Source: a virus
Direction: 5' to 3' (one strand)
DNA: 45,961 nt
IMG/VR virus record: IMGVR_UViG_3300045988_049759
Numbering within the stretch: the stretch's first letter is position 1; every line of letters starts with the position of its first letter. The notes beneath the pieces are model-generated. The model did no database searches. It was not told where the DNA came from and saw only the letters and a program-made list of their open reading frames with translations. The translations under genes were made by a program, and so were the position numbers. Positions 30,512 to 33,081 of this stretch are shown here, one piece after another.

Positions 30512-32401
30512 TTGTTCTTCAAAGGTTTTGTTGAAACCAAAAATAAAAAGTGCATAGAGAAATTCAAGGGCAGAACAGATTTCAAAACCTTTGAACAGGT
30601 TCAGTCATTACCGGAATACGCTGGAATATTGGCAGCGGACACAATTCTTGTTGATATTGATGATTCTGAAACTTCTGAAATACTGTTCAAGGTAGTGCAG
30701 GAATACGCCTTGACTTGCCGGGTTTACCGTACCAGCAGGGGCAAGCATTTCCTATTCAAGAACAGCGGAGTACCAACCAACAAAACAGGCTGCAAACTGG
30801 CAATAGGTTTGACCGCTGATATTAAAATCGGTACACGGAATTCCTATGAAGTGTTGAAATATGGTGGTAAAGAAAGGGAAATCCTTTATGATACCACTGA
30901 AAATGAGGAAGCACAGCCCCTTCCCCGCTGGCTTCACCCCGTAAAATCAAACATGGAATTCCTGAACATGGATGCCGGGGATGGCAGAAATCAAAGCCTG
31001 TTCAATTATATTCTTACGCTGCAAAGCAATGATTTTAGCGTGGAAGAAGCAAGGGAAACAATCAGGATAATCAATAAATTTGTGCTGAAAGTTCCGCTTT
31101 CGGATGATGAAATTGAAACAATCCTTCGTGATGATGCTTTCAAAAAGCCTGTTTTCTTCATGGGTTCAACATTCTTGTTTGACAAATTCGCAACCTTTTT
31201 GAAGAACAATCACCACATTATCAAGATCAACAATCAGCTACATATTTACAAAAACGGAATTTATGTTTCCGGGCTTGGAGAAATTGAAGCTGAAATGATT
31301 AAGCATATCCCACAGTTGAACAGAGCGAAAAGAACGGAAGTTCTTGCCTACCTTGATATTCTTATCAGGGAAAACACACAAGCGGAAGATGCTAACATGA
31401 TAGCCTTTGCCAACGGGTTATATAACATTGTGGATGATTCTTTTGTGGCGTTTACCCCGGAACACATTATCACAAACAAAATCAGGTGGGATTACAACCC
31501 GGAAGCCTATTCAGAATTGGCAGATAAAACCCTGAACAAGATTGCTTGTGATGATCCGGCGATCCGGGCATTGCTGGAAGAAGCTATTGGGTATTGTTTC
31601 TATCGCAGAAATGAGTTAGGCAAAGCCTTCATTCTGACTGGGGATAAATCCAACGGCAAAAGCACCTTCCTTTCAATGGTTCAAACCCTGTTAGGGGAAG
31701 AAAATATTGCTTCCCTTGATCTGAAAGAACTTGGTGATAGGTTCAAAACCGCTGAAATGTTCGGCAAGCTGGCAAATATCGGTGATGATATAGGGGATGA
31801 ATTCATTGCAAACCCGGCGATCTTTAAGAAGTTGGTAACGGGTGAACGGGTATCAGCAGAACGCAAGGGGCAAAATCCCTTTGAGTTCAACAATTATTCA
31901 AAGCTGCTATTTTCGGCAAACAAAATTCCCCGTATTAAAGATAAAACGGGGGCGGTGCAGCGGCGATTGACAATCATTCCTTTTGATGCAAGATTTTCCG
32001 CTGATGATCCCGATTTCAACCCGTACATTAAGCACCTTTTGAAAACAGATGAAGTTATGGAATATCTGATAAATTTAGGTATTGTCGGATTGAAGCGGGT
32101 GCTGACAAACCGGGCATTTACCGCTTCCGCAAAAGTTCAAAAGGCAATGGATGAATACGAGGAAAACAACAACCCAATTTTGGGATTCTTCAAGGAATGT
32201 GAAGATGAAGATTTTCAAATTGAAAATGAACCAACGAACAAGGTTTACAAGCGGTATCAGGAATATTGCCTTGCAAACAGCTTACAGCCTATGAGCAACA
32301 TTGAATTTTCAAAGCAAGTGAACCGCATTTTGAACATGAAGGTTGTGAATAAGACAATTCAAAACAAAAAATACCGGATATTTGTTCGGGCAGATAGTTG
32401 A
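30512..32401 (+). CDS. Primase-polymerase / P4-D5-type SF3 helicase
   Basis: 629 aa. Walker A GDKSNGKST. Motif RRLTIIPF. N-terminal prim-pol-like region. Confidence 0.8.
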   Translation: MFFKGFVETKNKKCIEKFKGRTDFKTFEQVQSLPEYAGILAADTILVDIDDSETSEILFKVVQEYALTCRVYRTSRGKHFLFKNSGVPTNKTGCKLAIGLTADIKIGTRNSYEVLKYGGKEREILYDTTENEEAQPLPRWLHPVKSNMEFLNMDAGDGRNQSLFNYILTLQSNDFSVEEARETIRIINKFVLKVPLSDDEIETILRDDAFKKPVFFMGSTFLFDKFATFLKNNHHIIKINNQLHIYKNGIYVSGLGEIEAEMIKHIPQLNRAKRTEVLAYLDILIRENTQAEDANMIAFANGLYNIVDDSFVAFTPEHIITNKIRWDYNPEAYSELADKTLNKIACDDPAIRALLEEAIGYCFYRRNELGKAFILTGDKSNGKSTFLSMVQTLLGEENIASLDLKELGDRFKTAEMFGKLANIGDDIGDEFIANPAIFKKLVTGERVSAERKGQNPFEFNNYSKLLFSANKIPRIKDKTGAVQRRLTIIPFDARFSADDPDFNPYIKHLLKTDEVMEYLINLGIVGLKRVLTNRAFTASAKVQKAMDEYEENNNPILGFFKECEDEDFQIENEPTNKVYKRYQEYCLANSLQPMSNIEFSKQVNRILNMKVVNKTIQNKKYRIFVRADS

Positions 32402-33081
32402 AAGGGGTGAATATTTTGAATGAACACAGCAGAGAGAGAGAGAGAGAGAGAGAGAGAGAGAGAGAGAGAGAGAGAACAGAAGCTAAAGATTGGACGGGCA
32501 ACCAAAGAAGCATTTATACAACATTGGGTGCTTCCAATCACAGCGATAAGGACAGGCAACAGCATGATTATTATGCTACTGAACCCCGTGCAATGGAACT
32601 TCTGCTTGCAGAAGAACATTTTGCCCCGATTATATGGGAATGTGCGTGTGGTGAAGGGCATTTGTCAAAGGTGCTGGAACAACACGGGTTCGAGGTTATT
32701 AGCACAGATTTAATATACCGGGGCTTTGGTGATCCTGAACCGCTGGATTTCCTGAAAGAAACCCTTGATGATTTTGAAGGGGATATTATCACAAACCCAC
32801 CTTATAAATACGCTTTGGAATTCGTTGAACAGGCGTTGAATAGTGTGCAGCCGGGAAGAAAGGTTGCAATGTTCTTGAAGCTGCAATTCCTTGAAGGAAA
32901 GAAGCGAAAAGAATTCTTCTTACATAACCCGCCAAAGGTTGTATATGTGAGTTCTTCCCGCTTGAATTGTGCAATGAACGGGGATTTTGAAAAGTACCCT
33001 TCCAACAATGCAATCTGCTATGCGTGGTTTGTGTGGGAAAAAGGGTTCAAGGGTGATCCTATTATCAGATGGATAAATTGA
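32398..33081 (+). CDS. N6-adenine DNA methyltransferase (NPPY) with an (RE)n N-terminal tract; start codon ambiguous
   Basis: Motifs DYYATEP and IITNPPYKY. In-frame starts are only TTG 32398, GTG 32407 or TTG 32416. The only nearby ATG (32420) is out of frame. Confidence 0.75.
   Translation: MKGVNILNEHSRERERERERERERERTEAKDWTGNQRSIYTTLGASNHSDKDRQQHDYYATEPRAMELLLAEEHFAPIIWECACGEGHLSKVLEQHGFEVISTDLIYRGFGDPEPLDFLKETLDDFEGDIITNPPYKYALEFVEQALNSVQPGRKVAMFLKLQFLEGKKRKEFFLHNPPKVVYVSSSRLNCAMNGDFEKYPSNNAICYAWFVWEKGFKGDPIIRWIN
32431..32474 (+). repeat. (AG)22 dinucleotide microsatellite inside the methyltransferase 5' region
   Basis: Counted directly: 44 nt of uninterrupted AG. Confidence 0.95.

Follow-up and report, generated by a model that had tools for sequence, protein, structure and literature searches.

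We analyzed a simple-sequence repeat at the 5' end of a methyltransferase gene in a viral DNA of 45,961 nucleotides (nt; IMG/VR virus record IMGVR_UViG_3300045988_049759), referred to as the window. By its sequence, the window is a temperate siphovirus-like phage of human-gut Clostridia. The repeat, an (AG)22 tract, quite probably serves as a contingency locus, switching an orphan N6-adenine DNA methyltransferase encoded by the phage. An earlier note on this DNA had proposed a slipped-strand ON/OFF arrangement, which is supported by the hypervariability of the tract, the occupation of all frames among relatives, and the intact methyltransferase bodies of OFF alleles.

Positions 32431-32475 of the plus strand, the proposed hypermutable switch element, were found to be an uninterrupted (AG)22 followed by one A (Tandem Repeats Finder: period 2, 22.5 copies, 100% matches), in agreement with the 44-nt AG tract described in the earlier note. 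A 20-nt AG pattern had an expectation of 0.00 in 100 dinucleotide-preserving shuffles of the window. No further dinucleotide repeats of at least five units or homopolymers longer than 7 nt were found in the 46-kb window, and (AG)22 is its sole sizeable repeat. Translation bore out that the tract reads as RE/ER in every frame, giving (RE)n. As the stop codon of the preceding primase open reading frame (ORF) lies at 32399-32401, the tract is part of the methyltransferase coding region rather than of an intergenic spacer; it sits there between the start codons and the conserved body. Two minus-strand ORFs over the tract (32289-32513 and 32359-32661; SLSLSL...) were unsupported and taken as spurious.

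All the coordinates and frame statements of the earlier note were right on re-reading. The methyltransferase ORF 32398-33081 (227 aa) is in frame with TTG 32398, GTG 32407, and TTG 32416, and ATG 32420 lies in the +1 frame, giving a 97-aa product that ends at 32713. Losing one unit or gaining two was expected to bring ATG 32420 into the methyltransferase frame; in line with this, relatives that share the flanks and have unit numbers (n) of 9, 12, 15, and 21 do sit in the ATG frame.

A Shine-Dalgarno sequence, GAAAGGGGTGA, was read at 32400..32410 (+), and a purine-rich counterpart (AAGGAAGGTG, GAAGGGAGTG, or similar) was found at the equivalent site in all repeat-bearing relatives. The TTG start codon at 32416..32418 (+), 8 nt past the GGGG core, has the body in frame when n = 1 mod 3, as at present (n = 22), and the ORF of the present allele read from it spans 32416..33081 (+; 221 aa; stop codon TGA at 33079-33081). 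The ATG start codon at 32420..32422 (+) follows 4 nt after TTG in the +1 frame, 12 nt past the GGGG core; it has the body in frame when n = 0 mod 3, and in the window it opens the out-of-frame ORF of 97 aa (32420-32713). Judged by spacing to the GGGG core, TTG 32416 and ATG 32420 would both be usable. The TTG frame was chosen by gene callers for alleles with n = 10, 19, and 22. Protein databases contained both frames, with proteins beginning MNEHS(RE)n or MNEQ(RE)n in the TTG frame and MNTAE(RE)n or MS(RE)n (MNTAERERE... and MSRERE...) in the ATG frame. The exact window proteins (from the three possible starts, and the 97-aa product) had no match in a collection of 15 billion proteins. TTG 32398 and GTG 32407 are unlikely to be true starts, being located upstream of or within the Shine-Dalgarno sequence, though gene callers sometimes pick them.

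The double start TTGAATG, with two starts 4 nt apart, was kept across diverged upstream sequences, and equivalent start pairs preceded the repeat in other lineages (ATGTATG, GTGTATG, TTGCATG, ATGAATG, and ATGATTG). Because the second codon varies (N, Y, or H), the +4 ATG, rather than a particular residue, appears to be conserved; common ancestry of the cassette is a possible alternative source of this conservation. The double start provides two ON frames and one OFF frame. Most relatives carried no repeat and had their start (MKDWTGN) directly after the tract position; because they begin at MKDW, the (RE)n leader appears to be dispensable. In the window and all repeat-bearing relatives, no in-frame start was present from the tract to the conserved KDW. 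The first in-frame start past the tract, TTG 32524, is not preceded by a Shine-Dalgarno sequence, and a protein begun there would be without D25 and W26, which are nearly invariant. As repeat-bearing genes have no usable downstream start, the tract-bearing leader appears to be an added switch cassette and not a 5' untranslated region. A functional start downstream of the tract, which the earlier note considered incompatible with switching, was thus true of the repeat-less relatives but not of the repeat-bearing genes.

Tract length among prophage copies and relatives

Copies of the same prophage were retrieved by exact matches to neighboring proteins. Copies with 0-11 substitutions over 3.5-8.2 kb had n = 12, 14, 14, 17, 19, 20, 22, and 26. 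The copy L171, with 0 mismatches to the window over 4890 nt, had 26 AG units (OFF), and L163, with three single-nucleotide polymorphisms (SNPs) over 8.2 kb, had 14 units (OFF); in each of these, tract length was the sole indel relative to the window. L161, with five SNPs and a 1-nt indel over 8.2 kb, also had 14 units (OFF). Over about 3.5 kb, two mismatches to the window were found in both L172 (12 units, ATG frame) and L173 (20 units, OFF), three in L176 (17 units, OFF), seven in L177 (22 units, TTG frame), and 11 in L175 (19 units, TTG frame). The comparison of tract length in related prophages, proposed in the earlier note as a check, thus showed that it is not invariant, with 12-26 units in near-identical copies and 3-28 in 67 relatives. 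Some assemblies failed at the tract: L179, L180, L027, and L037 start within it, the sequence of L178 continues into junk at this point, and a run of N stands here in the isolate scaffold L174. These contig breaks and the N gap hint at switching within a clonal population, although they are only suggestive. The 1-nt indel relative to L161 lies beside a T7 run (33885-33891; window about 33880-33891), between the HD-domain and ADP-ribosylglycohydrolase genes, and an extra 49-aa gene was called near 33880-33891 in some near-identical contigs.

The sources of the 67 loci with the same cassette were viral contigs, a set with one genome for each species, and metagenomes, and the 22 units of the window were near the top of their range. 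For window-type flanks, the assignment is exact: n = 1 mod 3 gives the TTG frame, 0 mod 3 the ATG frame, and 2 mod 3 neither. The TTG frame was found in 19 loci, the ATG frame in 18, and the OFF state in 30. The view that only in-frame (RE)n length polymorphism matters was rejected, as n mod 3 was spread over all three classes. The earlier note had found only near-cognate starts in frame with the body of the 22-unit allele. Reading this allele as weak or off was not borne out by the position of TTG 32416 relative to the GGGG core, the conservation of TTGAATG, and the similar numbers of loci in the TTG and ATG frames, and the window allele is probably ON via TTG 32416.

The conserved body was full length (197-198 codons) in 30 of 30 OFF alleles. 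The median ratio of nonsynonymous to synonymous substitution rates (dN/dS; Nei-Gojobori, 1945 pairs) was 0.078 overall, and OFF-OFF (0.079) and ON-ON (0.078) pairs gave nearly the same value. By these sequence comparisons, the gene is under strong purifying selection, though nearly half of the sampled alleles would be unable to express the body. The intact OFF bodies and low dN/dS are the signature of a reversible contingency locus, that is, of phase rather than decay. On OFF contigs, the proteins reported by gene callers were shortened, with an LGASNH start (184-185 aa) or an MELLL start (161-162 aa), and such proteins were common in protein clusters. In one ENA contig of 949 nt (P0041), the protein starts in the frame of the 97-aa ORF of the window and switches back to that of the methyltransferase near the CCCC of ACTGAACCCCGT, through either a compensating second frameshift or an error in sequencing.

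Other repeats occupied the same 5' position in further members of the family: (ACAG)6 in L199 (601-640), (AC)10 in L200 and L201 (601-635), (AGCA)8 in L028 (2960-3010) with a similar run in L160 (2960-3010), and G8 in L043 (2970-3000). Each of these was preceded by two starts 4 nt apart. In relatives without a 5' repeat, frameshifts fell exactly on internal homopolymers. A C run at the conserved NPPK site was C9 with an intact ORF in 36 loci and C10 with a frameshift in L114, L129, and L154, and a G run in motif I was G8 and intact in L091 and G7 and frameshifted in L130 and L138. The internal-run sites are at about nt 3436-3460 in L114, L129, L154, and L158 and at about nt 3165 in L130, L138, and L091, and such sites also occur in L045-L080. 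Among 198 near-complete loci, a sample that is biased to window relatives and whose counts ignore phylogeny, 87 had a 5' repeat, 52 an internal homopolymer, 59 neither, and 0 both. By this pattern, switchability seems to be recurrent in the methyltransferase family. Scans of viral contigs for more ACAG, AGCA, and ATGTATGA-(AG)n members yielded none or loci already in the set, so that the variability in these lineages rests on few loci. The hits of an ATG(ACAG)n scan were unrelated phage genes. In another phage gene family, from IMG/VR contigs unrelated to the window (L203, L206, and L210), ATG is followed by (ACAG)10, (ACAG)10, and (ACAG)14 behind identical upstream flanks, and this family may represent a further phage 5' microsatellite switch.

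The methyltransferase and its genomic setting

The conserved body (TEAKDWTGN...IRWIN; 32476..33078, +) was present in relatives with and without the repeat and matched phrog_799 'DNA methyltransferase' (7e-66). Residue conservation was taken from an alignment of 50 relatives (A1). DYYATEP (32566..32586, +), an element like the N-terminal motif X of gamma-class amino-methyltransferases, has D51, Y53, A54, T55, and P57 invariant. IWECACGEGH (32632..32661, +) corresponds to motif I, the S-adenosylmethionine-binding (AdoMet-binding) loop, with W74, E75, A77, C78, G79, and G81 invariant, and comes after a strand in the Rossmann-like model. NPPY (32794..32805, +), the catalytic motif IV of N6-adenine/N4-cytosine amino-methyltransferases, has N127, P129, and Y130 invariant and P128 nearly so. 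DYYATEP and NPPY had been recognized in the earlier note, and both were confirmed in the body. The motif order, DYYATEP, WECACGEG, and NPPY, places motif I before motif IV, with the motifs invariant or nearly so in the 50 sequences.

The AlphaFold model (predicted local distance difference test score, pLDDT, 75.8) had M.TaqI as the best solved match (Foldseek E 2.4e-6, TM-score 0.51), followed by M.BseCI; small-molecule and RNA methyltransferases matched the model at similar scores. The profile match, motifs, and fold thus indicate a small amino-methyltransferase of the M.TaqI-like (gamma) arrangement. The (RE)n leader (window 32416-32480, residues 3-22) was modelled as a single long helix (pLDDT 80-87), and residues 30-53, the linker from the leader to the catalytic domain, had low model confidence.

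No restriction gene was found near the methyltransferase, with no res or hsd gene among the neighbors, which are a primase, a 68-aa protein, an HD-domain protein, and an ADP-ribosylglycohydrolase. The locus is not a phasevarion in the sense of a mod gene or hsdM/hsdS of a Type III or Type I locus, and the protein has only about 200 aa. The D5-like primase/helicase (30512..32401, +; Pfam DUF5906, D5_N, and Pox_D5; stop codon TGA at 32399-32401) is preceded by a family-B DNA polymerase (28330-30066, +). Downstream of the methyltransferase are the genes for the 68-aa protein (33093-33299, +), the HD-domain protein (33296-33844, +), the ADP-ribosylglycohydrolase (33984-34901, +; Pfam 5e-71), a transcriptional regulator (35131-35646, +), and the small and large terminase subunits (35803-37591, +). 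An integrase (15880-16881, -) and a repressor-like regulator (17721-18224, -) were also identified. The 68-aa protein is very widespread, being found in 4456 blocks of the assembly collection. The genes at 33093-34901 and the methyltransferase possibly form a counter-defense cluster between the replication and packaging modules.

No promoter-like (sigma-70-like) site was found on the plus strand at 30658-33947, so none lies directly upstream of the methyltransferase. As the primase stop codon abuts the ribosome-binding site of the methyltransferase, the two genes are probably co-transcribed, and the gene layout makes transcription of the methyltransferase with the replication genes in lytic growth most likely.

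The carrier contigs of 50-467 kb indicate that the phage is integrated. One carrier is a scaffold of GCA_000158075.1, which is given as Clostridium asparagiforme DSM 15981 (PMC6547426), and further close copies came from human-gut metagenomes. The DSM 15981 prophage has 2 mismatches to the window over about 3.4 kb. No close relative of the locus was found in GenBank phage records, which gave only a 47-nt match to a Bacillus phage.

The window also contains a diversity-generating retroelement (10290-13594), with a variable repeat (11906-12024) at the 3' end of a 585-aa ORF (10290-12047), a template repeat (12155-12273), and a reverse transcriptase (12404-13594; phrog_1423, 2e-137). The template-to-variable differences were at template adenines in 25 of 26 cases. 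With the retroelement and the AG tract, one phage carries two separate diversity generators.

Switching model and alternative explanations

Slipped-strand mispairing in (AG)n would add or remove 2-nt units, stepwise and reversibly, either as the host chromosome and its prophage are replicated or when the phage family-B polymerase copies the phage genome in lytic growth. As the tract is located between a fixed ribosome-binding site, with its two overlapping starts, and the body, each unit change would rotate the gene through three states. The body would be read from TTG when n = 1 mod 3 (the window, n = 22) and from ATG when n = 0 mod 3; when n = 2 mod 3, neither start would reach the body (OFF), and only short out-of-frame peptides would be made. 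Switching would be fast and reversible within a clone, and the enzyme would act on replicating phage DNA. The most likely benefit would be bet-hedging of virion methylation against hosts that restrict unmethylated or methylated DNA. Progeny with methylated DNA would be safe from methylation-sensitive restriction, and those without methylation would evade methylation-dependent (Type IV) restriction or save the cost of methylation.

A broader proposal can be put forward tentatively, with somewhat less than even confidence. A bet-hedging module would have evolved recurrently in one methyltransferase family of temperate gut phages, in which a double start 4 nt apart and a microsatellite (AG, ACAG, AC, AGCA, or G8), or an internal C9 or G8 run, give three heritable states of phage methylation. 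A lineage would continually release methylated and unmethylated virions and survive either type of restriction, and with the retroelement it would hedge adsorption too.

Several points weigh against a methyltransferase contingency locus. The frame counts were not significantly different from uniform (chi-square about 4.0, 2 degrees of freedom, p about 0.14), and this distribution alone does not demonstrate selection for switching; the 67 loci are phylogenetically non-independent, and some are perhaps one contig present in two collections. The unit count of 22 could be off by one or two in this assembly, which would change the ON/OFF state of the window allele. Heterogeneity within populations and reversibility are deduced from differences between samples and from contig breaks, and the use of both starts, perhaps at unequal strengths, from the layout of the start region. 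Concerning the enzyme, the match to Pfam Dam (PF05869) scored 20 bits, below the cutoff of 28.1, and searches of NCBIfam profiles and PDB sequences with the methyltransferase gave no meaningful match. We infer an N6-adenine DNA methyltransferase, with DNA as the substrate and its target, from the motifs and the modelled fold.

The earlier note had suggested that either the lysogen methylome or phage self-protection could switch. Because the gene ends the lytic replication module and lacks its own promoter-like site, the switch more likely acts on phage DNA methylation than on the lysogen methylome. A prophage-borne phasevarion, in which the prophage expresses the methyltransferase and the ON or OFF state of the enzyme alters the host methylome and gene expression, is therefore unlikely, though it has support in that the phage is temperate and located in large host contigs. 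Most tract variation was also sampled from integrated prophages, so slippage builds up in lysogeny. Prophage methyltransferases can alter host phenotypes, as in the example of PamA of S. aureus cited in a review (PMC13076061). However, the gene closes the replication module and is encoded on the lytic strand, downstream of the early region that the repressor controls, and no promoter-like site lies directly upstream of it.

The tract could also be a neutral hotspot that drifts in length in a gene that the phage no longer needs, with the OFF alleles as early pseudogenes. OFF was the commonest state (30 of 67), the frame distribution was not significantly non-uniform, and some OFF-frame tracts would revert slowly, being short (L002, (AG)5) or interrupted (L025 and L051). 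Neutral drift is nevertheless improbable, given the full-length body in every one of the 30 OFF alleles, the dN/dS of about 0.08 that includes OFF-OFF pairs, the conserved double start, and the occurrence of differing repeat motifs in the same family, either 5' or internal and never both.

Expression that does not depend on the tract, from a start past it (e.g., TTG 32524) or by transcriptional or ribosomal slippage on the repeat, would free the protein from gating by tract length and is very improbable. Repeat-less relatives do start right after the tract position, gene callers offer the LGASNH... and MELLL... starts on OFF contigs, and the low model confidence at residues 30-53 indicates that the extreme N-terminus may be structurally inessential. 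Against this, no in-frame ATG, GTG, or TTG precedes 32524, no Shine-Dalgarno sequence lies ahead of it, and a protein started there lacks the nearly invariant D25 and W26; the MELLL start also removes the invariant DYYATEP. Long A/T runs, and not AG dinucleotides, are known to make RNA polymerase slip, which likewise argues against tract-independent expression.

An artefact of assembly or sequencing, in which a low-complexity run collapses, expands, or stutters in PCR, can practically be dismissed. In its favor, the tract is where several contigs end and where one isolate scaffold has a gap, and the exact unit count is uncertain in any single short-read assembly. However, the tracts (6-56 nt) are below typical read length, a difference of up to 14 units separates independent assemblies whose flanks are otherwise identical, short and easily sequenced tracts (5-12 units) also vary among relatives in all frames, and the same spectrum was found in protein databases built from thousands of independent runs.

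Repeat-driven methyltransferase switching is textbook knowledge for host-adapted bacterial pathogens and has hardly been considered for phages. Here, a long microsatellite would gate an orphan methyltransferase in a temperate phage present in several human-gut metagenome assemblies. If the contingency-locus interpretation is true, virion methylation in gut phage populations would be heterogeneous by design, which would affect host-range prediction, methylation-based phage-host linking, and phage engineering, and OFF alleles would be systematically mis-annotated by gene callers as truncated proteins. The idea is directly testable because the cultured Enterocloster (Clostridium) asparagiformis DSM 15981 has a near-identical prophage.

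Comparison with known systems

No description of a repeat-gated phage methyltransferase was found in the open-access literature, where absence is no proof, and it was unmentioned in reviews of prokaryotic methyltransferases and of phase variation and in a preprint on epigenetic phase variation in the gut. Repeat-gated methyltransferases have been catalogued in surveys of Type I and Type III systems (PMC5909438, PMC7383803). As in the phase-variable Type III mod genes and their phasevarions, the repeat studied here is inside the ORF of a putative N6-adenine DNA methyltransferase, and the unit number shifts the frame between ON and OFF. The closest mechanistic relative is the Type III mod M.MmyCI of Mycoplasma mycoides (PMC3498834), which has 12 repeats and shares the AG dinucleotide as its repeat unit. 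Unlike the Type III mod proteins, the phage enzyme is an orphan of roughly 200 aa with an M.TaqI-like (gamma) fold and no res partner, and it is carried by a temperate phage rather than by the chromosome of a host-adapted pathogen. The phage repeat also differs in lying in an added N-terminal leader right behind two overlapping starts and in reaching up to 28 units.

Simple repeats also gate methyltransferase ORFs outside Type III systems, as in hpyAVIBM of H. pylori, a Type II cytosine methyltransferase with AG repeats (PMC3411764), and cj0031 of C. jejuni, a Type IIG enzyme with poly-G (PMC4889913). These resemble the phage gene in this respect, whereas they are chromosomal, belong to restriction-modification systems, and differ in enzyme class and repeat position. 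In lic1 of H. influenzae, a 5' (CAAT)n repeat lies behind several initiation codons in different frames, and two of the three frames are productive, possibly at different levels. The phage gene likewise has a 5' repeat behind more than one start codon and two of three frames that would be productive, but lic1 has a tetranucleotide repeat and is a bacterial surface-modification gene; start-dependent expression levels would be a further likeness that we only infer for the phage gene.

Among phage orphan adenine methyltransferases (phrog_799, Pfam Dam PF05869, and PamA of S. aureus prophages), the enzyme is typical in being small, without a restriction partner, and encoded between the replication and packaging modules. 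It differs in its probable repeat gating, of which we found no description in this group, and it reaches phrog_799 but not the Pfam Dam threshold.

The closest precedent is agt of phage T2, in which an A9 run toggles DNA glucosylation and thereby sensitivity to TgvAB versus McrA/BC, allowing escape from either Type IV system (PMC12633550; Gomez, Barrick and Waters 2025 preprint). This preprint, on short homopolymers in lytic coliphages, was the sole report of phage contingency loci that we found, and it states that such loci had not previously been described in phages (PMC12633550). Of the contingency-locus features given there, a phage gene and a hypervariable repeat were seen here, by sequence comparison alone. 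In both cases, the gene of a phage DNA-modifying enzyme contains a hypermutable repeat, and the proposed benefit is bet-hedging between defenses against modified and unmodified DNA. In T2 and T4, which are lytic coliphages, the homopolymers are short (6-9 nt) and intragenic, and switching was measured experimentally; in contrast, the present case is a temperate Clostridia phage with a long 5' dinucleotide microsatellite and a methyltransferase instead of a glucosyltransferase, and its evidence is comparative only. The mechanism is known from bacteria; the present system differs in its orphan, phage-borne enzyme and in the probable gating through an N-terminal leader behind a double start.

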